A DNA stretch of 44,731 bases from a virus. Below, piece after piece: positions 8,223 through 41,885 of this stretch. The translations under genes and the position numbers were made by a program. Position 1 is the first letter of the stretch. The number at the start of each line of letters is the position of its first letter. The notes beneath the pieces were generated by a model. That model did not search any database. It saw only the letters and a list, made by a program, of their open reading frames with translations, and had not been told where the DNA came from. The DNA is taken from IMG/VR virus record IMGVR_UViG_3300035698_016751. One strand, 5' to 3'.

Positions 8223-9098
8223 ATGTCGAAACTCTCACCTGTCCTAACAATAGCAGATGGGTTCCATATGACTAAGGAAGTACTTCCTTTATCTTCTAAT
8301 TCATTTTTATAAGCAACACCAGTATAACCTTGTTCAATAAGTTTTTGTTTATCTGGTCCATGTTTGAAAGAATTTAGTTCTCCTTCTGACATGGGGTTTT
8401 CCATTCGATATATTTTAGAAACGTCTACTACTATTTCAAATGCTCTGGGCCGTTTCAAATCTCCCCCCGCAAATCTACCAATACCAAATTCTCCTGACAC
8501 TCTATTTTTTGCTGCATTATAAGTTCCTACGTGGAACCCACCTTCTCCGAAGTCAGAAATTTTAGCTACATTTAATTCTTTGGGAGACTTCATGGTTGCA
8601 TGATAGGCTGTCATATAACGAGTTGGTTTAGAAAGTAAGATATGGGATTTGTGATTATTTAAATTATGAGGTCTTTCAGAATCTTGTCCCTTATCGCTTA
8701 CGGTAAATCCGCCTCTGGTCATTTGAATAGCAGGATTTCTTTTGAAATCGTTTAGCAATCTAGTTAATTCAACAAATTGACCATTCTCATCTTTGTACAT
8801 CATTTCCATATCTTCTGGTTCATAGGTCAAGTCAAGACCATGTTTTTTAGCAAATAAAGTTGTAGAATAAAGGAGTTTGGATATTTCTTCTGTTGTATGT
8901 CCCGAGATGTTTTTCATTTCCCATATTTCGGCGGCGTTTCCTTTTTCGTGACTGGCCATGATTTGCATATTATCTTTTTTCATTCTAAAGTGAGATAATT
9001 TGCCATCCTTCTTCAAGTAATATTCAACTTCATAGTCCCCGAATTTTTCGGTTTGTTTACCACTTTTTTCTTCGACATATTGCTTGAAAGTATTCATT
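8219..9098 (-). CDS. hypothetical protein (293 aa). True start taken as the internal MNTFKQY Met, not the track start at 9316
   Basis: The 5' extension to 9316 is low-complexity and runs through the AT-rich divergent promoter region. The Met at 9098 gives MNTFKQYVEEK, mirroring the divergent neighbour. No family assigned. Confidence 0.45.
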
Positions 9099-9361: not shown

Positions 9362-9997
9362 ATGCCATTATATAAATCGACGGCTTTAGTTCAATGGGAA
9401 TTCCAATTTGAAGGTTCTCAGGAAAAAGCATTAAAATCAGCGTTAGCACATTTAGAAGGAGTCCTTCCTGAAGATGTGTCTTTTCGTATCAAAATCAAAG
9501 AATCTAAATCAAAGAGGCGAACCGTTTTAGGTGAATTCGCACCAGAAGATATCTTTCCATATATCTCTTCGGATAAAATTGTACGTGAATATGAAATAGA
9601 TAATAAAACATATAAGGTGAGAATGAATTCGCAAAGATATTGCGTATTTCAAAAAGAACCATCTTGTGTTGCTTGTGGTATTGAAGGAAAGAAATTCTTG
9701 TTGGAACAATACAACAGTGACCGAAATCCTCATTTCAATTTTTATGCCGAAGAAAATGGCAAGAATATTTTGATGACGAAAGACCACATTTTAGCTAAAT
9801 CAAATGGTGGTTCTAATAAATTAGAAAATTATCAAACGATGTGTTCTGTTTGTAATAATCTAAAGGGAAATCTCCCGCTTTCTATAGAAGATGTAAGCGT
9901 ATTGAAGAAGTTGTTTGATGAAAATAAACGAATTCTTAGTCGTAAAGAATTAAACATTCTCTTGGACGAAACAAGAGAAAAACTTCTTGATAAGTAG
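9362..9997 (+). CDS. HNH endonuclease
   Basis: C-terminal KDHILAKSNGGSNKLENYQTMCSVCNNLKGN is a canonical HNH motif (H..N..N..C..CN). Confidence 0.7.
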   Translation: MPLYKSTALVQWEFQFEGSQEKALKSALAHLEGVLPEDVSFRIKIKESKSKRRTVLGEFAPEDIFPYISSDKIVREYEIDNKTYKVRMNSQRYCVFQKEPSCVACGIEGKKFLLEQYNSDRNPHFNFYAEENGKNILMTKDHILAKSNGGSNKLENYQTMCSVCNNLKGNLPLSIEDVSVLKKLFDENKRILSRKELNILLDETREKLLDK

Positions 9998-10075
9998 TTT
10001 ACAAATCTTTCTATTTGTTCTATCATGTATGAATGGAAATAATAGTAAAAATTATAGGGGTAATTCTGTATTTTT

Positions 10076-10525
10076 GTGTTGTGGGATACATGGCGTATCA
10101 ACTTTTTATCAAAGATAGCAATAGGTTTGATGATGTTTAAATCAACAGGGACATTACGTTATACCCATCAACGCTATAATTTGGTCCTTGATTGTGACCA
10201 TGAATTAGGTAGGTATTATCGTTCTTTAATAGCAAAAAAATGGTTGCTCAGAAGACCATCATGGAAAGAACATATCACTCTCATAAGAGGTCCGGTTGAG
10301 TTTGCTAGTCCTCCTGATAAAGAACTATGGGGTAAGTATCACGACCATGTTATCACGTTTGAGTATGAACCATTTATAAATACAAGAGAGCCAGAAGAAG
10401 GATATCTGAGATACTTCTGGTTGAATGTTTTATGCCCTCAGTTATTGGACATAAGAGAAGAGCTTGGATTGCCTCGACCACCATTATTCCCATTACATTT
10501 AACCATAGGTAATTTGTGGAAATAG
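10076..10525 (+). CDS. 2H phosphoesterase superfamily protein (LigT / cyclic phosphodiesterase-like). Probable start at ATG 10130
   Basis: Two H-x-T-x motifs with flanking hydrophobics (HITLIRG and HLTIGN) about 75 aa apart. Both the spacing and the context are typical of the 2H fold. Confidence 0.55.
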   Translation: MLWDTWRINFLSKIAIGLMMFKSTGTLRYTHQRYNLVLDCDHELGRYYRSLIAKKWLLRRPSWKEHITLIRGPVEFASPPDKELWGKYHDHVITFEYEPFINTREPEEGYLRYFWLNVLCPQLLDIREELGLPRPPLFPLHLTIGNLWK

Positions 10526-21617: not shown

Positions 21618-22409
21618 ATGCGGAAAATGAGAAATATATCCAAACAAAGATTTGGGAGACTTGTGGCAATAAAAAGAGTAGCCAACAATGATAAACATAA
21701 TAAGACTCAATGGTTGTGTAAATGCGATTGTGGAAAAGAAACAGTAGTAATTACTTCATCGTTGACAGGAGGGTTAACAAAAAGTTGTGGTTGTTTACAT
21801 AAAGAATCTATGTCCATAACAGGTAAAAAAAAAGTTAAAAAGTTGGACGGACAAAGGTTTGGAAGACTTCTTGTTTTGGAAAGAGATTATGAATATCAAA
21901 AAAAGAAAAATAGTTGTTCTGCTTATTGGAAATGTAAATGTGATTGTGGTCAAGAAAAGACTATTTGCGGTTCTAATTTAATAAGAAAAAGAGGAACCAA
22001 AAGTTGTGGTTGTTTGGCAAGAGAAATGACCACTGAACGTAACATAATACTTTTTTCTAAAAAAGATGGTGTGGCGGCTCAGAATGCCATATACTATCGT
22101 TACAAACGTGGTGCGAAGTTAAGAAATTTAAGTTTTGATTTATCTGTGGAAGAGCTTAATAGTTTTTTACAACAAAATTGTTTTTATTGTGATAGTGAAC
22201 CTAGCAATAGACATAGAAACAAACGAAAAAACTTAATACATGATTATAGCTATAATGGGATAGATAGAAAAAATAATAAAAAAGGTTATTCTTTAGATAA
22301 TTGTGTCCCCTGTTGTAGGATTTGTAATAAAGCGAAAGATGTTATGTCTTTGAAAGAATTTGCAGAATGGATACAATCTGTTCAAACGTCGTCTTGGATA
22401 ATTAATTAA
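21618..22409 (+). CDS. HNH homing-endonuclease-like protein with a duplicated N-terminal module
   Basis: Two tandem copies of QRFGRL(V/L)..(K/E)R....W(L/K)CKCDCG(K/Q)E..(V/I)....L..G.TKSCGCL. The C-terminal HNH core is CFYCD...GIDRKNNKKGYSLDNCVPCCRICNKAK. Confidence 0.7.
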   Translation: MRKMRNISKQRFGRLVAIKRVANNDKHNKTQWLCKCDCGKETVVITSSLTGGLTKSCGCLHKESMSITGKKKVKKLDGQRFGRLLVLERDYEYQKKKNSCSAYWKCKCDCGQEKTICGSNLIRKRGTKSCGCLAREMTTERNIILFSKKDGVAAQNAIYYRYKRGAKLRNLSFDLSVEELNSFLQQNCFYCDSEPSNRHRNKRKNLIHDYSYNGIDRKNNKKGYSLDNCVPCCRICNKAKDVMSLKEFAEWIQSVQTSSWIIN

Positions 22410-26013: not shown

Positions 26014-27225
26014 ATGTTACTACTTCCAGCCCAATCTGTTCTCGATACAGATTTATACAAATTATCCCAACAGGCAGCTATACTTGCTAAATATCCTAAC
26101 GTCGATATGGAGTGGCGATGGGCCAATCGTAATGGGACACCATTTAGTAATAAGGCGGTAGACGCCATTCGTGAAAATATTGAAAGGATGGCAGAGCTTA
26201 AAGTCAATGATGAACAGATGGCAGCTTTTGCAAAAGCCTGTTCGTTCTTCAATCCTTCTTACTTTGCATATCTGAAAAATTACAGATTCAATCCTAAAGA
26301 AGTGAAAATCACTCAGGATAATGATGAAAACTTTGCAATGTCTTTTCGTGGAAAATGGCATAGCAATATTTTGTGGGAAATTCCGGGGTTGTTCATCCCC
26401 AGTGATGCATACTACAAGTTTGACGATACAGACTGGTCAGATGAAGGACAAGAAGCTTTGCTGCGTGAAAAAGGGAAATTCCTTTGGAACTGTACCTTTG
26501 CTGATTTCGGAACAAGGCGAAGAAGAAATTTTGAATCTCAAGACCGTGCTGTAAGAATTCTGAAAGATAACCCCGGCTTTGTTGGGACCAGCAATGTTCA
26601 CTTGGCTTTGAAGTATGGTGTAAAGCCAATTGGCACTTTAGCACATGAATGGATTATGGCACATCAGGTTTTGTCTGGTATTCGTCATTGTAATAGAGCA
26701 GCGATGCAGGCATGGAATGATGTTTACAAAGGCAATTTGGGTATCGCCCTTCCTGATACCATTGGTTCTGATTCATTCTTTGCTGATTTTGATGGTGTTC
26801 TTAGCAGGTTGTTTGATGGCACCAGACACGACAGTGGTTGTCCTTATGAATATGGTGAAAAGACAATTGCTCACTATGAGAGTTTGGGAATTAATCCATG
26901 TTCAAAGGTTATCATCTTTAGTGATGGATTGCGTGCCAATGCCGATGCGAGTCCTGAAAGAAATCCTGAAAAAATCAGAAAATATTTTGAAGGACGTATT
27001 AAGACATCATTTGGTATTGGAACAGATTTCACAAATGATTTCCCCGGTAGTCCTGCGTTGAATATCGTAGTCAAACCTTATACAGTCAATAATATTCATG
27101 TTGTTAAATATCCCGATAGTGCGGGAAAAGCGATGGGCGACCCTGATGCACAGAGAGTTGTACGATATATTTCCCGTGGAATCTCGCTGGATACTCCGTT
27201 GGCTTCATTAAAAAAGGGAAAATAA
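26014..27225 (+). CDS. pncB: nicotinate phosphoribosyltransferase
   Basis: Collinear with E. coli PncB. Shared motifs are LDTDLYKL (LDTDAYKL), DFGTRRR, GTSNVHLA (GTSNYDLA), TLAHEWIMAHQ (TQAHEWFQAHQ), GIALPDT, RHDSGCPYEYGEKTIAHYESLGINPCSKVIIFSDGL, SFGIGT and LNIVVK. Confidence 0.85.
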   Translation: MLLLPAQSVLDTDLYKLSQQAAILAKYPNVDMEWRWANRNGTPFSNKAVDAIRENIERMAELKVNDEQMAAFAKACSFFNPSYFAYLKNYRFNPKEVKITQDNDENFAMSFRGKWHSNILWEIPGLFIPSDAYYKFDDTDWSDEGQEALLREKGKFLWNCTFADFGTRRRRNFESQDRAVRILKDNPGFVGTSNVHLALKYGVKPIGTLAHEWIMAHQVLSGIRHCNRAAMQAWNDVYKGNLGIALPDTIGSDSFFADFDGVLSRLFDGTRHDSGCPYEYGEKTIAHYESLGINPCSKVIIFSDGLRANADASPERNPEKIRKYFEGRIKTSFGIGTDFTNDFPGSPALNIVVKPYTVNNIHVVKYPDSAGKAMGDPDAQRVVRYISRGISLDTPLASLKKGK

Positions 27226-27367
27226 TGATTGATAAAATTATCACATTAACGGAAGAAGAATCAAAAAGATTGACGGAAAGACCGTTAAAAGTTGCGGGAA
27301 AAGATTTTGAAGAATTAGAAGATTGGAGAAATCGTTCTCGCAGGTCAAATATTAGGGTAAATTAAAA

Positions 27368-29134
27368 ATGAAAATACTTATTGCACAAACCAATACTACT
27401 CCGAATGATTTTGAAGGTAACTTTCAACAAATCAAAGATGCTATTGATGCGGGATTGAATAAGGTAGACCTTATCATCACCCCAGAATTATCAATTCCGG
27501 GGTATCTCGTAAAAGACATGATGTATGATGATTCTTTCATTGAAGGAAATCTTAAAACTCTACAACAAGTAGTAAAAGCAACTAATTGGTCAGTTCGTAA
27601 GACTGAAGACACTGCAACAACCTATGTGGTAGTAGGCTACATTGATAAAAACCGAACTGGCAAAGGTAAGCCATTCAAAAACATGCTTGCTGTTATCTGT
27701 GATGGGGCTATTGTTGCAACATATCAGAAAAGACTTCTTCCTTTTTATGATGTATTTGATGAAGGACGATATTTTGAGCCGGGAACCGAAGGAACTGTCA
27801 TTGAGATAGCAGGAGAAAAATGGGGTCTAGCTATCTGTGAAGACATCTTTAATGATAAAGGCATGGATGATTATAACTATGCCACGAATCCTCTTGCTGA
27901 GTATCGTAAAATAGGTGTCAATAATATCATCAGTATAAATAGTTCTCCTTTCGTTATGGGGAAACCCAAAGAACGAGCCGATATGGTGCGAGAGAGTTTC
28001 AAAAATGGAACTATAATTTATTGTAATCAAACAGGTGGTCAGGATGATTTGGTGTTTGATGGTCACAGTATGATTGTTCAAAATGATAAGGTGTTGTTGT
28101 TTGCGGATGCAGAAACACCATTGATAGATTTTGATTTTGAAAATTGTTCACAAAATGATGTTATCAAGATGTCACAAATTGTTGGAAACCAAGCGGATGA
28201 CCGAATAGCTTCTCTTTATCAAATGGGCGTTATCGGCTTGAGAGATTATATCCAAAAAAATGGATTTAAAACAGCCGTATTCGGAAGTAGTGGAGGAATT
28301 GATAGTGCATTAGTTGCTGCAATGCTTTGTGATGCCATAGGACCGGAAAACGTGTACGGCATAAGAATGCCTAGTGTGATAAGTAGTTCACACTCCGTTG
28401 ATGATGCTGGTGCGCTTCAAAAGAATTTCGGGTTTAATGATTTTCTTGTTCCCATTGAACACAAAGACAATCTGAAGAAATATAATGAGATATTTCTTCC
28501 GCTCGACAGTCCGCCCCTTGCTAATGGACAATATAATGCTGTTGCTGACGAAAATATACAAGCTAGAATTCGTGGCATGATTGTCATGCACTTCTCAAAT
28601 GCATTCGGAGCAATTCCGATAGCAACGGGCAATAAATCTGAACTTTCAGTTGGATACTGTACTCTTTATGGTGATATGTGCGGTGGATTTGCTCCACTCA
28701 GTGATGTATACAAGATGGATGTATACGCATTGGCTGAATATCGTAATAAAAATGGAGTCATGATTCCTGTTTCCATTATAGAAAAAGCACCGAGTGCAGA
28801 GTTGTCGGAAGGGCAAGAAGATTCAGATTCTCTTCTTCCTTATCCTATTCTGGATATGATTCTGTTTGGTCTGGTTGAACATCACATTAGTAGTTTCGAA
28901 AAATTCTGTGCTGTTTATAAAGATATGGTTTCAGAAGCCTATGGGTCTTCTTCAAATAAATCAATCGGTATTATAAAAGATTGGATTAAAAACGAAGGTG
29001 CGGAACAAGCATATAATAAAACAATCCAAATGGTTAACAGAAACGAATTCAAGCGAAGACAAGCCGCACCGGGAATTAAGTTCAGTAAAGTAGCCTTTGG
29101 GTCTGGTCGGCGTATGCCAATCACGAAAAAGTAA
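27368..29134 (+). CDS. nadE: glutamine-dependent NAD+ synthetase (N-terminal nitrilase/CN-hydrolase domain plus C-terminal NAD synthetase domain)
   Basis: N-terminus MKILIAQTN...ITPELSIPGY with the catalytic Cys in GLAICEDIF (CN hydrolase E-K-C triad). C-terminal ATP pyrophosphatase P-loop FGSSGGIDSALVAAM. At 588 aa it matches two-domain NadE. Confidence 0.85.
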   Translation: MKILIAQTNTTPNDFEGNFQQIKDAIDAGLNKVDLIITPELSIPGYLVKDMMYDDSFIEGNLKTLQQVVKATNWSVRKTEDTATTYVVVGYIDKNRTGKGKPFKNMLAVICDGAIVATYQKRLLPFYDVFDEGRYFEPGTEGTVIEIAGEKWGLAICEDIFNDKGMDDYNYATNPLAEYRKIGVNNIISINSSPFVMGKPKERADMVRESFKNGTIIYCNQTGGQDDLVFDGHSMIVQNDKVLLFADAETPLIDFDFENCSQNDVIKMSQIVGNQADDRIASLYQMGVIGLRDYIQKNGFKTAVFGSSGGIDSALVAAMLCDAIGPENVYGIRMPSVISSSHSVDDAGALQKNFGFNDFLVPIEHKDNLKKYNEIFLPLDSPPLANGQYNAVADENIQARIRGMIVMHFSNAFGAIPIATGNKSELSVGYCTLYGDMCGGFAPLSDVYKMDVYALAEYRNKNGVMIPVSIIEKAPSAELSEGQEDSDSLLPYPILDMILFGLVEHHISSFEKFCAVYKDMVSEAYGSSSNKSIGIIKDWIKNEGAEQAYNKTIQMVNRNEFKRRQAAPGIKFSKVAFGSGRRMPITKK

Positions 29135-33117: not shown

Positions 33118-33840
33118 TTATACTTCTTGAACGTTTCGAGCAACATCCTGCCAATTAGATTTAAATTCTTTTGGAATATCGGCTGATGTTATGAAATCTA
33201 CGTATTCGATTATAGCCTGAGCAAACATATCGGAAGCCATATGTGTAGTGGCATCATCAGAACGTAATGCTCGTACAACTTCTATTTGCAAACTGTGTAC
33301 CTGTTTATCCTTGTACCATTTTCTGTATAATTGATTCAAGTTTTTTCTTCTTCGTGCAGCGTATGGTCCCCCAGCACGCCCTTGTCCAACTTCCATAATT
33401 TGATTTAGTATATAAACAAATGCATCTTTTCTTAATGTCCCACATGTGTAAGAAGGTTTAGCCCCTTCTCCGAATCCAACAATGGCATCTATTTCAGGGT
33501 CTCTATTGAAATTTACCGCATTGCTTACACCGTGCATAATCAAAATTGTAACATCAGCAGAACAGTCAAATATCGTATTGACATACTCCATAATCGGGTC
33601 TAAAAATTCTTGTTTAACTACGTCTTCATGGCAGTGTTCAATATTGTTACAATTGGCTTTATCTTCATCGTAGTCATAATCTCTTGCTCTTTCCCATCCG
33701 TTGTTTATGACAGCATAAGCACCAGTTTTTTCAGCAATTAATCTTGTCAATAATCCGGTGCGTGGGTCATCTGCTCCGTGGGGAGCAACTAATAGTATAG
33801 GTGTCGTGTCATCGCCATCTATTAAGCTAATACGTTCCAT
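33118..33840 (-). CDS. PghP-like poly-gamma-glutamate hydrolase family protein (phage replication-related protein YjqB-like, zinc peptidase fold)
   Basis: N-terminal ILLVAPHGADDPRTGLLTRLIAEKTGAYAVINNG matches the family signature APHGG.IE.GT.E.A. Later MHGVSNA. Confidence 0.45.
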   Translation of the reverse strand: MERISLIDGDDTTPILLVAPHGADDPRTGLLTRLIAEKTGAYAVINNGWERARDYDYDEDKANCNNIEHCHEDVVKQEFLDPIMEYVNTIFDCSADVTILIMHGVSNAVNFNRDPEIDAIVGFGEGAKPSYTCGTLRKDAFVYILNQIMEVGQGRAGGPYAARRRKNLNQLYRKWYKDKQVHSLQIEVVRALRSDDATTHMASDMFAQAIIEYVDFITSADIPKEFKSNWQDVARNVQEV

Positions 33841-33974
33841 ATAAAGTAAGTCCTTTCTAATGTCTATAGTAGTTTACTCTTTTTTAAAGTTAATGCAACA
33901 TTATTTATCGTGACAAACTGTATTTTACACCTTAATCGTTTTGTTTATCAATGAGTTACATGAAATTCCTCCTT

Positions 33975-33996
33975 TAGTTAAGATGTACATGGAGGG
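33975..33996 (+). promoter_or_regulatory. phage-type promoter box TAGTTAAGATGTACATGGAGGG
   Basis: TGTACAT family, 3 bp upstream of ATG 33999. The GGAGGG also serves as the SD. Confidence 0.55.
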
Positions 33997-33998
33997 CC

Positions 33999-35069
33999 AT
34001 GAATGTTAATGCTACAATCTGCGGTGTGAAATTGCGTGACCTGAAGGTTATGAATAGCAAGTTTGATGGTTATGATATCCATACTGGTAAACGATTCAAA
34101 GCTGGGAAACAAATTGCATATCTACATGGTAGCAATCTTACACCTAAAGAGTCAAAAGCACTATTTCCCAACGGGAAAGTGAGTGCCATTTCTGTTCGTT
34201 GGCCTCTTAGAGAGAACAAGACCAAACCGAATGAGTACAAACCCGTACCACCACAGAAGAAACGTCCTTTTGTCACACCTTTCACGCCTAGTGAAAGTCA
34301 GGAAGAAATTCTTGCTGCATTGCTTGGAAGTGAAGACCATCTTCTTATCAAGGCTTTTGCTGGAACAGGTAAAACTTCTACACTCGTTTGGTTGGTTCAA
34401 GAATTGTCCAAAAGGGGTCTGACTAAAAACAAAAAAATCATTTACTTGGCATTCAACAAAAGCATACAAGAGGAACTTGCAGAGCGATTGTCTGGAACAG
34501 GTGTCCCTGCTCTTACTACTCATGCGTTTGGATTTCAAGCAATTAAGACAGTATTTGGTGGGGAAATCAAACCTACTAGCGGCAAATGTGCTTCCACTAC
34601 ATTTCTCAAATTAGTTTGTCATGAAAATGGATTACCTATCACGGCATTAGGTTTTAGTGTCGCACGTCATGCGAAAGAATATTTGCTTCGGTCTGCTGTT
34701 CTGGAATTGGTCGGTTATATTAAATCTTGGGCAATCTGTCCCTCGTTTTTTGGCCGAAACATTGATTCACCATGGAATTTCAGTGACAAACAAAAAGAAG
34801 CTATATTTGAATTGATAGAGATGTATGAAATTGAGTTGCCAAGTGCGAATTGGACCCCAGAAGATTTGGTGAAATATGCTTGCAGCATTGTAACAAATAA
34901 TTTACCAGTTAATCATGATTTATTGGTAGAAATTGATTATGATGATATGCTTTATTTTCCACTTGTTTTCAATTTGAACCTTCCGAAATACGATTTAGTT
35001 CTGACTGATGAAAGTCAGGATTTTAATAGATGTCAGATTTTACTTCTCGAAAAAATGATTGCTGCTTAA
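33999..35069 (+). CDS. UvrD/PcrA-like SF1 helicase, N-terminal fragment (motifs I, Ia, II)
   Basis: Motif I LLIKAFAGTGKTSTLV, motif Ia LAFNKSIQEELAERL, motif II LVLTDESQDFN. The ORF stops 7 codons after motif II. Confidence 0.65.
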   Translation: MNVNATICGVKLRDLKVMNSKFDGYDIHTGKRFKAGKQIAYLHGSNLTPKESKALFPNGKVSAISVRWPLRENKTKPNEYKPVPPQKKRPFVTPFTPSESQEEILAALLGSEDHLLIKAFAGTGKTSTLVWLVQELSKRGLTKNKKIIYLAFNKSIQEELAERLSGTGVPALTTHAFGFQAIKTVFGGEIKPTSGKCASTTFLKLVCHENGLPITALGFSVARHAKEYLLRSAVLELVGYIKSWAICPSFFGRNIDSPWNFSDKQKEAIFELIEMYEIELPSANWTPEDLVKYACSIVTNNLPVNHDLLVEIDYDDMLYFPLVFNLNLPKYDLVLTDESQDFNRCQILLLEKMIAA

Positions 35070-35081
35070 AAGGAAAACAAA

Positions 35082-35474
35082 ATGCTTAACATGACACTTG
35101 CATTGACGGGAAAACGTAGAGAAACCATTTCTGGATTTTTGCGAGAAATTGCAGATGCCATAGACAGTGGCTATAGTTGGAATATACAATCTGAAGATGG
35201 GTCGGCTATAGGTGCCCTTTCCGGTGATGCTATTTCATACGCAATAGTTGGAATTACGGATAAAGGCGAAAGGGTTGTTTTCACTGACCACTATCAATCT
35301 AGGTCACATTGTTTTTCGTCTTGTACGGGTGCCGCTATTGCAGTTGCCAACAATAAAGGAATTGGGGTAGCACCTGATGGAAAAGAACATAAAATCGTTA
35401 GGTTCGTAGTCGAAGATAACGAAGGAAATACCATCTTTCATAGAAGTTCTGAGTTGCTTGTTACGATTAGTTAA
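35082..35474 (+). CDS. hypothetical protein (130 aa)
   Basis: ORF with an AAGGAAAA SD. First gene inside the helicase-splitting insertion. Confidence 0.35.
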   Translation: MLNMTLALTGKRRETISGFLREIADAIDSGYSWNIQSEDGSAIGALSGDAISYAIVGITDKGERVVFTDHYQSRSHCFSSCTGAAIAVANNKGIGVAPDGKEHKIVRFVVEDNEGNTIFHRSSELLVTIS

Positions 35475-35489
35475 GATGTACATGGAGGG
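35468..35489 (+). promoter_or_regulatory. phage-type promoter box TAGTTAAGATGTACATGGAGGG
   Basis: Identical 22-mer to the box at 33975. Overlaps the stop codon of the upstream ORF. Confidence 0.55.
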
Positions 35490-35504
35490 TAAAGGAATAA
35501 AAAC

Positions 35505-35927
35505 ATGAACAGAAATACTTATTGGCGAAAAAGCGGAACGCATCAAAAAATACATAATAGATTGGAAGCATTAATCCCTTCAGAGGGAAGAGCAGATTTC
35601 ACGCACATAGAATTACTGCGATGTGCATCTAATATTTATTATGATTTTTATAATAATGGTGCTGGTAATCTTCATGTCTATAAAGACCAGCTTTTCCTTA
35701 TAAAAAGTTGGGAAGACGAAATCAAAGCGAAAATGCAACAGGGTGTTGACTTTGACAAAATTATTGGGGAATGCATGGAGGATGCAGAGGATGAAAACAG
35801 ACGTTATATTAGTGCCATGCTTGATAACGAAGTATCATCAGTCTATGATGGTTTGGAAAAAGTAATGGATGCTATCATTCTTGTTGTAGAAGAAAAACAG
35901 CAGGAAATTTCAAGGACGACCAATTAA
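35505..35927 (+). CDS. hypothetical protein (140 aa)
   Basis: ORF only. Confidence 0.35.
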   Translation: MNRNTYWRKSGTHQKIHNRLEALIPSEGRADFTHIELLRCASNIYYDFYNNGAGNLHVYKDQLFLIKSWEDEIKAKMQQGVDFDKIIGECMEDAEDENRRYISAMLDNEVSSVYDGLEKVMDAIILVVEEKQQEISRTTN

Positions 35928-35937
35928 GGAAAACTAA

Positions 35938-36186
35938 ATGCCAGTACAAAGAATTGTAAAATACGAAACTTCTGACGGCGAAGAATTCACTGACAAGACC
36001 GAAGCAAATGCGCACGAAGTGGTCATCGAAACCGAAGAGGCTTTGAGGAAGATTTTAATCACTGGTCTTAGCACTGGCCGACTTGATGCTGTTACGAGTG
36101 TCATGGTTCTTAATGCTCCCCTAGTCAGAGATGAATTGAACAGATTCCTCCGAAGGCAACCTACAGCCAAGAAGAAAAGTACATAA
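35938..36186 (+). CDS. hypothetical protein (82 aa)
   Basis: ORF whose stop overlaps the next start (ATAATG). Confidence 0.3.
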   Translation: MPVQRIVKYETSDGEEFTDKTEANAHEVVIETEEALRKILITGLSTGRLDAVTSVMVLNAPLVRDELNRFLRRQPTAKKKST

Positions 36187-37097
36187 TGAGATTACAAGAT
36201 ATAGCAGAAGCAATCAAAAGTGGCGACATGCAGTTTGATTATTGCGGTCATAAAATTCATAATTACCTTTTAGATAATTATGAACGTAATGTTGCTGGTG
36301 CTGCTGGTAAGCTTGATAGTAAATGGGGAAGTGATGCTGCGAATATGCGAAAATTTTTCCAACGTTTCCTAGATGTCGAAATTGAAGAGGGGGAGAGTCT
36401 TGTTGGACTTGTAGATGGAACCGTGTGTTGTGGATGTGGTAAAACTCTATATTGGGTTTTTGAAGGCAAAGCACTTAAACTACAAGAATATTATGCTGAA
36501 GAAACCCCTAACTTGCGTCCTGTTTATCTAAGGGAAAGTTCTTGTCCTTTTGAAATTCCACAACCAACTAAAGGTAAAATAACTATTGCGAGTAGATTAA
36601 TCTTCGCTAATTTTTTCCCATCTATCAAAGATAAAGAAGATTGGGGAGAAGAATGGTCTATAAATAATGATATTGGTCTTGTCAATGTTACCAAATATAA
36701 AGCAGAACGAAATGTTGCTATGGGGCAACTAGGGAATATGCCCTTTGGCGTATTTGTTAGCGAAGATAAAAAATCAATCATCATTGGTAATGGCTCTTTA
36801 GAATCAGAACTTTTAGATGCTATGAGTCCAGAAGAATATAAAGAATATTCTAAAATTGATAAACATGAACCAATGATGATAGAAGGTCATAAACAGATAG
36901 GTGAGTTATGGGCAGCAGTGTGGCGATGGGAGGCAACTGATTTTGATACAATTAAGAATGACTATGATGCGTTGGTAAAACGTATGCCCACGATAGAATT
37001 AGATGTTCCACATGGTGTTTGGGAATTCACCCACTACTACGCCACACGAACCAGTGATAATGAAGATGTCTTCGCTAGGCTAGTCCTCGTTAGTTAA
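36186..37097 (+). CDS. hypothetical protein (303 aa) with a CCGCG motif
   Basis: ORF only. Last gene of the insertion. Confidence 0.4.
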   Translation: MRLQDIAEAIKSGDMQFDYCGHKIHNYLLDNYERNVAGAAGKLDSKWGSDAANMRKFFQRFLDVEIEEGESLVGLVDGTVCCGCGKTLYWVFEGKALKLQEYYAEETPNLRPVYLRESSCPFEIPQPTKGKITIASRLIFANFFPSIKDKEDWGEEWSINNDIGLVNVTKYKAERNVAMGQLGNMPFGVFVSEDKKSIIIGNGSLESELLDAMSPEEYKEYSKIDKHEPMMIEGHKQIGELWAAVWRWEATDFDTIKNDYDALVKRMPTIELDVPHGVWEFTHYYATRTSDNEDVFARLVLVS

Positions 37098-37113
37098 GTT
37101 GTACATGAGAAGG
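37091..37113 (+). promoter_or_regulatory. phage-type promoter box TAGTTAAGTTGTACATGAGAAGG
   Basis: TGTACAT family. Overlaps the upstream stop codon. ATG 37115 follows immediately. Confidence 0.55.
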
Positions 37114-37114
37114 C

Positions 37115-38233
37115 ATGGAGAAATCAACAGGTAGAGCAATAGTAGTGGGCGACCCAAATCAAAGCCTGTATAGGTTTAGGGGTGCTGACGCACAAGCGTT
37201 TCCTCGTATCGCAGAAATGTTGTCCCAATCGAGAGACGTTGTGGAATTGACCTTGCCGACAAATTATCGTTGTGACATCAATGTTATTGACAATGCACAA
37301 AGATGGGTTCCTGACATTAGAGGCAATTCAAAAGCAACTGGCACTGTTGATGAAATCACATTTGGGAAATCCATGACCCGTGCCAATAATAATGGAAAGG
37401 ATATTTCGCTTCCTGATGGAGAAAATAATCAAGAGCGAACGCTTCCTATTCCCGGTAAAGATGAAGTTTCATTCGCATTTCTTTGTCGTGTTAATCTTCC
37501 ATTAATTATCACAGCATATCAGTTAATTGCACAGGGTAAAAGAGTCTGCATTATTGGGCGAACTCAGCTTGGCGGTCCTCTCAAAAGAATCATCACAGAC
37601 CTTTGTGGTTCCAATCCCGCCGTAGCAGGATACACAAATCGAATTAGTGATAGAAGAAAGAAAAATGGCAAAGTGAAAAAAGGTTTGATGTCTCGTCTAG
37701 CACATTACCTTGAAATGCAAAGTCACAAATTATCGGATGAAAAATACGAAAATAAATTAGAAGCATTGCAGCAAAACTGTGAATGCATTGAGGTTATTGC
37801 GACTCGTATCCAAGACGATAAAGTTTCTAGTATCATCGAAGAAATTGACAAGTTATTTACTGAAGAACCAACTCCCGGTGTAATTTCTTTGAGTACAATT
37901 CATAGGTCAAAAGGTCTGGAGTGGGATGTTGTTTTTATTCTTCGCCCTGACCTTCTCCCTCATCCTCGTGCCGAAGGCAAGCCAGAAGAAGAGCAACAAG
38001 AAAATAATTGTTGCTACGTTGCGGCAACACGGGCGAGACATCGTTTGTATTATGTTTCTAATTGGCCATTTGGTTCAGGAAAATCTACCAAAAAATTTGC
38101 CGAGAAGGGAATTAAATCTGATAGTGTTGTTATTTTTGATGAGCCATTTGTACAACCGCCAGTGACAAATATCCAAGACATATTGGGAATAAGTAATATT
38201 ACGGTTTGTGATGATGATAATCGACCTTTCTGA
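37115..38233 (+). CDS. UvrD/PcrA-like SF1 helicase, C-terminal fragment (motifs III to VI)
   Basis: Motif III AIVVGDPNQSLYRFRGAD at the N-terminus, motif V/VI region STIHRSKGLEWDVVFIL and NCCYVAATRARHRLYYV. Confidence 0.65.
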   Translation: MEKSTGRAIVVGDPNQSLYRFRGADAQAFPRIAEMLSQSRDVVELTLPTNYRCDINVIDNAQRWVPDIRGNSKATGTVDEITFGKSMTRANNNGKDISLPDGENNQERTLPIPGKDEVSFAFLCRVNLPLIITAYQLIAQGKRVCIIGRTQLGGPLKRIITDLCGSNPAVAGYTNRISDRRKKNGKVKKGLMSRLAHYLEMQSHKLSDEKYENKLEALQQNCECIEVIATRIQDDKVSSIIEEIDKLFTEEPTPGVISLSTIHRSKGLEWDVVFILRPDLLPHPRAEGKPEEEQQENNCCYVAATRARHRLYYVSNWPFGSGKSTKKFAEKGIKSDSVVIFDEPFVQPPVTNIQDILGISNITVCDDDNRPF

Positions 38234-38245
38234 ATATAAGCTGCG

Positions 38246-38268
38246 TTAGTTAGGTTGTACATGGCAGG
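38246..38268 (+). promoter_or_regulatory. phage-type promoter box GTTAGTTAGGTTGTACATGGCAGGG
   Basis: TGTACAT family, upstream of the sigma-like gene. Confidence 0.5.
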
Positions 38269-38325
38269 GGGCAAGAAGAGTGACTTCTTGAGGCAGTAAG
38301 AGAATTTAAGTAAGGAGTATCGCCT

Positions 38326-39318
38326 TTGTCTAAAAATGCTAAAAATGAATGCCTTCCCTATGTCGAGATGCCGAAGGCACGTAAAGAAGAGTGCGCACGG
38401 ATTATAACTGAGGGCAATCTTCTTTTGAAGAAACTTCATAAGCAGGCAACATCGAGTATGTCAAGGGCAAAGTTCTTGATTGCACTGTTAGCAAAATTAG
38501 AAGATGGGTTTTGTGATGCTAATGGTAATATCCCTAAGATTCCTGTTGCCGTGAAGATTCATGGCGTTAGAATCAATAAAGGGGATGTTGTTAAAATTCT
38601 GACTGTTAAGAATTTGGAGTGGGATATCCTTTGCAGCATGAGTAATTTCTTGAAGCAATTGGTCAACAAGACGTATCTTAATCCTTATAACATCGTTGAG
38701 TGGAATGACCTTTATAACGAAGCAATGACTGCGGCTGTTGAGGCTATCCATTATTATACTAAACCCGATACAAAGGTTATTACTTATGTCGGAGAAGCGG
38801 TTCGGAGACATCTGTTTAATGTAGTTCAAAAAGATGCTCCGATGGCTGGTGTTAGTCGCCAATCAAGAGATTTGATGTCTAAATTCGCCAAAGCAAAACG
38901 TGAAGCAGAACAGAAAGTAGGACATCCTGTTGGCTTTGACGAATTGGTGAAAAAGTTGGAATTGAATCCTCGTCAATGCAAAACACTAACAAATATGCTG
39001 GTGCGTGTAGTTGAGGAACAGGCGTTGAATATGTCAGATGACAAAACTGCCAATGATTATACATCTACGGCGAAAAACAATAACAGACCTGTTCTTGAGC
39101 TTGACCAGCAAGAAGCAATTGCCAAAGCAAACTTGAATCCGTGGGAAACGGATGTACTGGTTGCCTTTTTGGAATCGTCACCGGGAACAACTGGGTGGCA
39201 GACCGAAGTAGCAAAACGCCACATCAATCCCGCAACAGGAAAATGTTTCAGCCGAGCCGCACCTGCGATAGCTTTGAAAAGAATTAAAAAGAAAATCAAA
39301 CAGAACTATGCGGCGTAA
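38326..39318 (+). CDS. sigma-70-family-like transcription factor (TTG start)
   Basis: TTG start with AAGGAG at -8. Region-2-like DLYNEAMTAAVEAIHYYTKPDTKVITYVGEAVRRHLFNVV (compare DLIQEG.IGLM.AV.KFD...FSTYA.WWIRQAI). Region-4-like LNPWETDVLVAFLES...ALKRIKKKIK. Confidence 0.5.
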   Translation: MSKNAKNECLPYVEMPKARKEECARIITEGNLLLKKLHKQATSSMSRAKFLIALLAKLEDGFCDANGNIPKIPVAVKIHGVRINKGDVVKILTVKNLEWDILCSMSNFLKQLVNKTYLNPYNIVEWNDLYNEAMTAAVEAIHYYTKPDTKVITYVGEAVRRHLFNVVQKDAPMAGVSRQSRDLMSKFAKAKREAEQKVGHPVGFDELVKKLELNPRQCKTLTNMLVRVVEEQALNMSDDKTANDYTSTAKNNNRPVLELDQQEAIAKANLNPWETDVLVAFLESSPGTTGWQTEVAKRHINPATGKCFSRAAPAIALKRIKKKIKQNYAA

Positions 39319-40973: not shown

Positions 40974-41885
40974 ATGGCTGGATTTAAACAACAAGCAATT
41001 AGAGAAGATATTACGAATCGAATCATTACTTCTCTAAAAGATGGAAAAGTGCCTTGGCGTAAGCCTTGGTCCGCAGACCCAAACTGTGGAGCATCCCGAA
41101 ACATTATCAGTAAAAATGCATACCGTGGAATCAATCCTTTCCTTTTGGAAATCGCTGACCACAGATGCCAGTGGTGGGGAACATACAAGCAATTCAAGGG
41201 ATTGGGTGGTCAGGTTAAGAAGGGTGAAAAGGGAACTAAAATTGTTTATTGGAAGAGTTTTGATAAAGAACCAGATGCCAATGGAAAGGTAAAAAAGGCT
41301 TTCTTTATCCGGTTCTACACCGTCTTCAATTTGGACCAAGTAGAAGGTGGAGAAAAGCTTGAAAAATTCCGTCCTAAAGAAGAAGACCTTGATAACGTTA
41401 ACTTTGGAAGTGATGATGCGTTTAAATCTTTTGATGAAATAATTGATGCTACTAAAGCGGACATTCGCTTTGGCGGGAACAAGGCTTATTATAAAAGAGC
41501 CAGTGGACCTACGTGGCCGAAGCATACAGATGGAGATTATATTACTTGTCCTCATCGTAGACAATTCCCTGATATGAGGGAATGGTACGATACGATATTC
41601 CATGAATTAGCTCACTGGTCAGAAATTCGTTTGAAATGGGATGGTTCGTATGCGATGGGAGAATTGATTGCTGAAATTTCGGCATGTTTCATTCCTCCGT
41701 CAGTGGGACTCCCGGTTAGTGATAACATGGAGAATCACAATCGTTATCTGGCAAGTTGGCTTGAGAAAATGAAGGATGACCCAAAGTTTATCTTTAGGGC
41801 AGCGTCACAAGCACAGAAAGTGTCAGATTATGTTCTTCATTTCAGTCATCCTGAAATTGAATGGAAAGAAGAAGAGGACGAATAA
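40974..41885 (+). CDS. ArdC-like anti-restriction protein (ssDNA-binding N-domain plus zincin metalloprotease domain)
   Basis: ArdC-N signature VPWRKPWSADPNCGASRNIISKNAYRGINPFLL. C-terminal HExxH in IFHELAHWSE. Confidence 0.6.
   Translation: MAGFKQQAIREDITNRIITSLKDGKVPWRKPWSADPNCGASRNIISKNAYRGINPFLLEIADHRCQWWGTYKQFKGLGGQVKKGEKGTKIVYWKSFDKEPDANGKVKKAFFIRFYTVFNLDQVEGGEKLEKFRPKEEDLDNVNFGSDDAFKSFDEIIDATKADIRFGGNKAYYKRASGPTWPKHTDGDYITCPHRRQFPDMREWYDTIFHELAHWSEIRLKWDGSYAMGELIAEISACFIPPSVGLPVSDNMENHNRYLASWLEKMKDDPKFIFRAASQAQKVSDYVLHFSHPEIEWKEEEDE

Follow-up and report, generated by a model that had tools for sequence, protein, structure and literature searches.

The 44,731-nucleotide stretch of viral DNA analyzed here (IMG/VR record IMGVR_UViG_3300035698_016751; hereafter the window) encodes a UvrD/PcrA/Rep-like helicase of superfamily 1A (SF1A) in two separate genes, with four other genes lying between them. 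The two products are probably polypeptides that need to assemble non-covalently into one enzyme, the cut being old and under selection and the spacer serving as a variable slot for passenger genes. An earlier first-pass annotation of the locus had left three readings side by side: a split enzyme of two subunits, an interruption by mobile cargo, and decay. The first of these is favored by the recurrence of the cut in the same loop in nine lineages, the retention of the motifs, the low ratios of nonsynonymous to synonymous substitution (dN/dS, 0.18 and 0.15) and the tightly correlated divergence of the two halves. In the proposed arrangement, the N-subunit would supply a beta domain, most of domain 1A (Q motif, Walker A, Ia and Walker B) and the inserted domain (1B in PcrA/UvrD), while from the C-subunit would come the missing motif III strand of 1A, an acidic tip, and domains 2A and 2B, which bear motifs IV to VI. 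The cut falls in the short loop that links the helix following motif II to the strand of motif III; it is older than the radiation of an entire clade of uncultured large phages, and selection has kept it. The gap between the two cistrons would then act as an ordinary intergenic junction in plastic genomes, where accessory genes come and go, apparently via recombination at copies of a box (TTAGTTA-N3-TGTACAT) that would also be the C-subunit’s own expression signal. The four genes in the window would be passengers, secondary arrivals in an existing gap.

Six open reading frames (ORFs) follow one another on the plus strand between 33999 and 38233: the N half, the four middle ORFs and the C half. 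The gene for the N-subunit (33999..35069, 356 residues) carries the Q motif (34287-34310, residues 97-104), the Walker A sequence or motif I, AGTGKTS (34359-34379, residues 121-127), motif Ia (34443-34478), a predicted inserted, 1B-like region, and motif II, LTDESQD (35001-35021, residues 335-341). The first-pass annotation had motifs I, Ia and II right but placed the stop only a few codons after DESQD, where it comes 15 residues past it. The gene for the C-subunit (37115..38233, 372 residues), whose protein starts MEKSTGRAIVVGDPNQSLYRFRGA, 11 residues ahead of motif III, carries motif III, VVGDPNQSLYRFRGA (37142-37186, residues 10-24), motif IV, NYRC (37259-37273), motif V, LSTIHRSKGLEWDVVFI (37889-37939), motif VI, YVAATRARHRLYY (38015-38053), and the acidic C-terminal tip CDDDNRPF (38207-38230). 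All of these lie on the plus strand, and the SF1A signature set is complete and in canonical order, with Q, I, Ia and II on the N half and III, IV, V and VI on the C half. The profile matches of the two halves adjoin: PF00580 is covered from position 5 to 236 by the N half (E 1.4e-10) and from 240 to 265, out of 271, by the C half, and the phrog_1967 profile (‘DNA helicase’) from 149 to 387 (E 1.5e-32) and from 390 to 668 (E 9.6e-51), respectively. The C half also matches PF13361 (UvrD_C, E 4.4e-16), and the scores for both Pfam families exceed their cutoffs. Because the fragments cover adjoining parts of the same profiles, they are, judged from sequence, one SF1 helicase gene in two pieces and not two unrelated helicase genes, and the split reported between motifs II and III, along with the presence of four genes in the gap, is confirmed. 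In contrast to the single polypeptide expected of an SF1A helicase, each of nine lineages has two ORFs with separate stop and start codons.

Both ends of the protein carry features of the family. Residues 1-67 of the N half (33999-34200) form a small, beta-rich domain that is confidently modeled and is followed by a disordered linker (residues 76-86); its sequence, ICGV..KVM.S.YDGFD..IAYK..LT...LFPNG, is conserved in split and intact family members alike. At the other end, the acidic C-terminus is near-invariant as (F)(V/I)DDGEPF at the same position in P0002-P0041 and in P0397, an intact relative described below, and the window’s CDDDNRPF is its version of it. This tip resembles the C-terminal tip (DDDIPF) of bacterial single-stranded DNA-binding protein (SSB) and the acidic, Phe-ended tails of T7 replication proteins, and it may be where an SSB, a polymerase or some other partner docks.

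The cut is not peculiar to the window. Searching with the N half retrieved 32 N-only clusters (334-407 residues, 41-100% identity), and searching with the C half retrieved about 35-39 clusters (340-460 residues, 47-100% identity), nearly all of which lack the N-terminal helicase domain; about 35 of them are C-only. In the majority of C-only clusters, motif III begins somewhere from residue 8 to 17, and the catalytic motifs are kept across both sets. Nine lineages (the window, L013, L001, L016, L002, L012, L004, L007 and L010) are cut in the same loop, their N tails running 15-20 residues past DExQD and their C heads consisting of Met and 1-7 residues before R-x-[IV]-x-VGD. Both halves lie on the same strand, N then C, in all nine, and they co-occur, adjacent or nearly so and in the same order, on every contig spanning enough to show both. 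The identical split in independent JGI, ENA, NCBI and Logan assemblies rules out an assembly artefact. An intact ortholog, the 763-residue P0397 (JGI contig of 35 kb), shares the N-terminal domain and ends in the family's tip as ..FTDDGEPF. The N half aligns with its residues 9-362 (42% identity, E 3e-81) and the C half with residues 367-684 (47% identity, E 4e-101), leaving four residues of P0397 unaccounted for between the halves, neither of which has extra residues at the cut. The junction is also read straight through in P0040/L008, P0041, P0043/L009 and P0023.

Purifying selection acts on both halves. L013, the nearest relative whose DNA could be compared, is 78% identical to the window in the N half and 82% in the C half at the amino-acid level, and Nei-Gojobori estimates from this pair give dN/dS of 0.177 at dS 0.71 for the N half and 0.145 at dS 0.82 for the C half. 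Across eight lineages, the two halves diverge in step, their pairwise identities being correlated at r = 0.98.

While the cut is constant, what lies between the halves is not. The spacer is 4 nucleotides (nt) long in L007, 5 nt in L010 and 53 nt in L002/L003, with no ORF in any of these; on the contig bearing P0029 it is about 370 nt with one ORF, in L012 746 nt with three, in L001 1075 nt with four, in L016 2008 nt with three, in the window 2045 nt with four, and in L004 2065 nt with five, one of them NADAR-like. In L013 it measures 1481 nt and holds a 50-residue remnant and a minus-strand TauE-like gene. The same split occurs with or without cargo, and therefore the window’s four genes are not its cause. 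An all-against-all BLASTP comparison of spacer proteins from the window, L001, L004, L012 and L013 (L016 and the P0029-bearing contig lay outside it) gave only one match between lineages, a 130-residue ORF shared by the window and L013. The cargo turns over.

A repeated, promoter-like box borders the variable slot. The exact 23-mer, TTAGTTAAGATGTACATGGAGGG, is found at 33974..33996, ending 2 nt before the start codon of the N-subunit, and again at 35467..35489, where it overlaps the stop of the first cargo ORF and precedes the ORF at 35505. A 78% variant, TTAGTTAAGTTGTACATGAGAAG, at 37090..37112 overlaps the stop of the fourth cargo ORF and precedes the C-subunit, and an 83% variant at 38246..38268 comes after the C-subunit and ahead of a sigma-factor-like gene; all are on the plus strand. 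The first-pass annotation had the same box in front of the N fragment and of two middle ORFs, which is true of the N fragment and of only one middle ORF (35505) if the exact 23-mer is meant; the promoter box it assigned to the C fragment exists, in the form of the variant at 37090. Nor does the box belong to this locus only, since the window holds 11 copies of TTAGTTANNNTGTACA (at most one mismatch), all on the plus strand, against 0.05 expected by chance. They lie at 4876, 22402, 25974, 33974, 35467, 37090, 38246, 39528, 40704, 40930 and 42219, eight of the 11 falling between 33.9 and 42.3 kb. The copies have the form TTAGTTA-N3-TGTACA(T) and sit a short distance upstream of plus-strand ORF starts. 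At the N half (33999), the C half (37115) and an AAA+ gene (39553), exactly 8 nt separate the TGTACAT core from the ATG, a spacing that hints at a promoter with a very short leader or none. Related boxes stand in L013 before the N half, in tandem (two) before the C half and before the sigma-like gene, and they are also present in L001 and in the 53-nt spacer of L002.

The comparison of the window with L013 places breakpoints at these boxes. DNA homology runs from 33803 to 35456 and resumes at 37128; the segment in between contains three ORFs in the window and the minus-strand TauE-like gene in L013, and box copies stand at both of its borders, the exact copy at 35467 on the left and the variant at 37090 on the right. 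A spacer gene of L004 (8003-8896, 297 residues, with an internal repeat) is homologous to the window gene at 21618-22409 (263 residues, E 1e-15), which lies 12 kb upstream of the helicase locus and ends at the box copy at 22402. As far as sequence can tell, one accessory gene family fills box-flanked slots that differ from phage to phage, and recombination at the box may be how it moves. A second repeated signal, distinct from the 23-nt box, is a 16-nt ribosome-site/start box, AAGGAAAACNAAATGC, at 35070-35085 and 35926-35941, common to the first and third cargo ORFs.

Where the cut lies in the fold is suggested by structure prediction. The N and C halves were joined as a single chain and modeled with AlphaFold2 from an 89-row alignment of halves and intact relatives, a design that cannot test two-chain assembly. 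The joined model has a mean predicted local distance difference test score (pLDDT) of 91.2 and a predicted template modeling score of 0.82. The cut, 356|357, lies in a loop between a helix (344-354) and a strand (363-368), where the pLDDT of a 10-residue block dips to 76. The best Foldseek matches are PcrA (3PJR, 1PJR), UvrD (2IS6, 3LFU, 4C2U) and Rep (1UAA), with E values from 1e-24 to 1e-18 over about 690 columns. The single-chain prediction has the SF1A fold, two RecA-like domains and inserted domains, without the four subdomains being delineated individually. By sequence, residue 4 of the C half corresponds to residue 239 of Escherichia coli UvrD, and in the model the cut leaves the motif III strand of RecA-like domain 1A on the C subunit. 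In PcrA and UvrD, adenosine triphosphate (ATP) is bound between domains 1A and 2A, which needs Walker A and B together with motifs III, IV and VI, and the arginines of motifs IV and VI touch the ATP gamma-phosphate. Because the ATP site lies between 1A and 2A, activity should need both subunits and, by analogy, neither half should be active alone.

Several points weigh against the reading of an old, selected, two-subunit enzyme with a passenger-collecting spacer. The single-chain model says nothing about binding between the halves. Compared with the next junction downstream, which itself has insertions in several relatives, the spacer does not stand out as clearly more variable, and ‘hot spot’ is too strong a label for it. 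Sigma-70-type sites in the region are at chance level and the box is unlike a two-hexamer sigma-70 promoter, making its promoter function a conjecture; terminator-like sites in the region are likewise no commoner than in shuffles. Finally, the phylogeny does not give a single split clade. In a neighbor-joining tree of the concatenated halves (626 columns, 500 bootstraps, Kimura-corrected p-distances), eight ‘crown’ split lineages are monophyletic in 497 of the 500 bootstraps, with P0397 and L008, whose junctions are intact, as their sister group. The split lineage L010 falls outside the group that includes these intact-junction relatives (481/500), all split taxa are monophyletic in just 1 of 500, and a neighbor-joining tree of the C half nests P0023, with its intact junction, in a subclade of split forms (173/200). 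P0023 comes from a JGI contig 1497 nt long; it shares 59% identity with the C half, has ..DESQDFNTCQHMMLDRIIKACGGRAIVVGD.. running across the split point and may be re-fused.

The trees would fit either one early cut followed by at least two re-fusions or two cuts at the same loop, a history that is provisional because these are distance trees with unequal rates, in which fast-evolving taxa may mislead. Could the loop between motifs II and III be uniquely permissive, cut and re-joined several times? The split would then have arisen at or before the L010 branch, with re-fusion in P0397/L008 and again in P0023, and the two-cistron form would have been kept as useful. Re-fusion looks mechanically easy where the halves are 4-5 nt apart. 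We regard this elaboration as tentative and, on balance, unlikely. If it were true, a promoter box of its own for each subunit would let helicase activity be timed via one half, and the spacer would be a promoter-flanked landing pad for co-expressing changing accessory genes with the replication module.

Two relatives suggest other interruptions of this gene. The syntenic relative L008 has a one-base frame shift at about 8700-8780, within some 40 nt after HPEGG and among several short G runs, which corresponds to residues ~250-265 of the window’s N half and leaves overlapping ORFs of 320 and 516 residues with the motif II/III junction intact. The frameshifted product is present on five contigs, and it may be a real second kind of break and not an error. 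In L015, positions 1-75 (P0008, 69% identical to the C half) belong to an ORF that begins at the contig end, so that the part upstream of an intein tail is cut off; it reads SGTVVDLNIERYHNFIANDVVTHN|SLYRFRGAD. The tail is a typical intein C-terminus (..HN then Ser); it follows GDPNQ within motif III, and only a few residues separate it from the split site.

The most familiar way for a phage gene to come apart is by insertion, and the window could be read as an intact gene cut in its own lineage by mobile DNA, a homing-endonuclease-type cassette or similar, with the halves tolerating the four-gene insertion. Four unrelated genes do stand exactly at the cut, HNH genes occur elsewhere on related contigs, and the splitting of phage genes by free-standing endonuclease genes is well known (PMC2988022; PMC2677866). 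Yet the same cut is present with merely 4-53 nt between the halves in L007, L010 and L002, and because such adjacent-halves lineages exist, insertion is refuted as the origin of the split in the clade; an older insertion, since lost, could still have made the first cut. The cargo also differs per lineage, even at the 75-82% protein identity that separates the window from L013. Of the inserted genes themselves, none of the four matched a Pfam, PHROG or NCBIfam family. The first (35082..35474, 130 residues) is the one common to the window and L013. Its L013 copy (9970-10347, against window 35082-35456) has in-frame stops and holds a 52-bp inverted piece (window 35230-35281 = L013 10146-10095), and it reads as a pseudogene decaying there while the flanking helicase halves are intact. 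The second (35505..35927, 140 residues) belongs to a large family of uncharacterized small proteins, with 785 cluster representatives (50% clustering) at E<=1e-3, an N-terminal consensus of TYWN..GKHQ...GELLRC.SN.YYD.YNNG, invariant W7, R39, N50, N51 and N55, and no Pfam match among the 40 members scanned. The third (35938..36186, 82 residues) has only a sub-threshold match to YebG (E 0.0068). The fourth (36186..37097, 303 residues) is a conserved hypothetical protein with seven homologs and no fold match, and it is not a recognizable nuclease. The four genes, all on the plus strand, had been labeled ORFans, a label that does not fit all of them, given the 785 representatives, the seven homologs and the L013 copy of the first. 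No homing-endonuclease family is found among the spacer genes of any lineage scanned, and neither a target-site duplication nor terminal inverted repeats occur at the borders of the insert. With the 4-, 5- and 53-nt spacers, the lineage-specific cargo, and no endonuclease, intein, intron or target-site duplication, interruption by mobile cargo is an improbable cause of the split.

Perhaps the halves have parted in function as well, the N half being for instance a stand-alone ATP- or DNA-binding factor, or each half working with another partner. Separate start signals precede each half, a box of its own precedes the C half in the window, L002 and L013, and the N-terminal domain and the conserved acidic tip could bind other partners. 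These extra domains are present in intact P0397 too, and the residues of the joint ATP site are conserved on both sides of it (Walker A and B; motifs III, IV and VI). The halves moreover co-occur in the same order on every contig able to show both, and their divergence is tightly correlated. Separate roles are hard to reconcile with this pattern, and we consider them very unlikely.

Decay is more improbable still. A helicase broken in two and heading for loss would explain the split frames, a common sign of decay, and would find company in the visibly decaying cargo gene of L013 and in the 1-nt frameshift of L008 elsewhere in the gene. Against this, both halves show dN/dS of 0.15-0.18, the halves are full-length with all their motifs in some 30-39 clusters at 41-100% identity, and the N-then-C order is conserved; the decay reading is rejected on these selection and conservation data.

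Rejoining of the pieces into one mature chain by an intron, a split intein or ribosomal bypassing is the least credible of the alternatives. Split-intein ‘fractured’ helicase genes are known from phage metagenomes (PMC2677866), and L015/P0008 carries an intein tail inside motif III, but that tail follows GDPNQ and so occupies another position. On P0397 the two halves align to within 4 residues of each other, and compared with intact orthologs neither is longer at the cut, which leaves intein halves nowhere to fit. In 33800-38400, Rfam gave no match to an intron or to an RNA family of any other kind at E<=1, bar one chance match to a small nucleolar RNA. The halves also differ in reading frame, each with a stop and a start codon to itself, and translated genes spanning 2 kb separate them.

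The surroundings of the locus are those of a phage replication module. Downstream of the halves come a sigma-like gene, an AAA+ clamp-loader/RuvB-like gene and an ArdC-N/MPTase gene, a syntenic replication and early module. The sigma-factor-like gene (38326-39318, plus strand) matches the FliA/WhiG type at E 2.4e-7, below the curated cutoff, and has no PHROG match; it is syntenic in relatives, whose copies have weak or faint Sigma70_r2 matches, and its product is a candidate for the reader of the box. Genes for the salvage of nicotinamide adenine dinucleotide (NAD) lie upstream of the halves in the window and directly upstream in L013. The window regions 26014-29134 and 40974-41885 contain a nicotinamide phosphoribosyltransferase-like gene, an NAD synthetase (phrog_36784, E 3e-108) and an ArdC-N/anti-restriction-like protein (phrog_7245, E 4e-64). 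There are no transfer RNA genes in the window. Because contigs bearing the family reach 175-436 kb, the source of the window is probably an uncultured large or jumbo phage. The collection of cultured phages searched holds no near-identical DNA, and the best cultured protein matches are helicases of the Flavobacterium phage FpV4 type, at 31% identity, so that this collection contains no cultured relative. IMG/VR scans with either the N half or the C half gave no match, and a scan of GTDB genomes gave distant cellular UvrD-like genes only and no clue to the host. A metagenome scan with the family alignment, whose patterns were generic, returned mostly distant UvrD-like genes and one new close locus, L016.

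To our knowledge, natural breaks inside a RecA-like motor domain are rare. The present cut parts Walker A and B from motif III and the second motor domain, which makes it a ready-made two-piece SF1A helicase that could serve studies of how a cross-subunit ATP site assembles and is coupled to translocation, or the design of split-helicase tools. For phage genomics, the lesson is that what looks like a gene disrupted by an insertion can be two genes long maintained as a pair by selection, with passengers collecting in the spacer, and annotation pipelines and pangenome tools should pair such halves instead of treating them as fragments or pseudogenes. Three features invite further study of how this uncultured group of large phages replicates and transcribes its DNA: the possible re-fusions, the promoter-like box and the SSB-like acidic tail.

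Among characterized enzymes, the closest likeness is to UvrD, PcrA and Rep (3PJR, 1PJR, 2IS6, 1UAA), with which the window’s helicase shares the motif set and its order, the fold over about 690 columns and the UvrD-helicase and UvrD_C Pfam matches. It differs from them in being encoded by two genes, cut between motifs II and III, in an extra N-terminal beta-rich domain of about 70 residues, which they lack, and in the conserved acidic C-terminal tip (..DDGEPF) that its family adds, and its sequence identity to the solved structures is just 14-19%. In T4-like phages, genes come in pieces through free-standing homing endonuclease genes, as in the topoisomerase genes 39/60 with mobA and the nrdA gene of Aeromonas phage Aeh1, split by mobE. 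As in such genes in pieces (review, PMC2988022), an enzyme essential for DNA metabolism is found as two neighboring cistrons in the original order, with foreign genes between them and reassembly presumed. Unlike in them, none of the eight occupied spacers here contains a homing endonuclease, the split persists when the spacer is empty, the cargo is unrelated between lineages, and the split is deep and clade-wide instead of a single-phage event.

The ‘fractured genes’ of Dassa et al. 2009 (PMC2677866), gp41 helicase included, combine split inteins with an intervening endonuclease gene. They too place a phage replication helicase in two genes at one locus in one orientation, with regulatory elements and ORFs between; here no endonuclease is present, ligation of the product is impossible because the junction lacks intein halves, and the enzyme is SF1A and not of the DnaB/gp41-like superfamily. 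For the box, the nearest counterpart is provided by the promoter early stem-loops (PeSLs), mobile regulatory cassettes that drive modular shuffling in T4-type phages (PMC2839356, PMC4122927). In both, a short, repeated expression signal precedes many same-strand genes, and breakpoints of insertion, deletion and replacement coincide with its copies, so that a repeated, putative promoter motif borders the variable modules here as it does there. The sequence of the box is unrelated to theirs, no stem-loop or terminator part was detected, its promoter is only putative, and one genome pair was close enough for breakpoints to be read.

In jumbo phages, RNA polymerase beta/beta' and a minimal Pol III alpha are known in split form (Iyer et al. 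2021, PMC7824862), and in these as in the window’s helicase a core nucleic-acid enzyme is made as several polypeptides thought to form one catalytic unit. The setting matches as well, with a phage sigma-like factor and contigs of up to 436 kb. That study (PMC7824862) has a UvrD-type SF1 helicase only as an ordinary gene, a word search of its text found no split UvrD-like helicase, and a literature search for split UvrD or split helicases in phages found nothing relevant. The split UvrD-like helicase adds to known kinds, the SF1A helicases on the one hand and phage genes in pieces on the other, with split core enzymes being an established theme of jumbo phages (PMC7824862).

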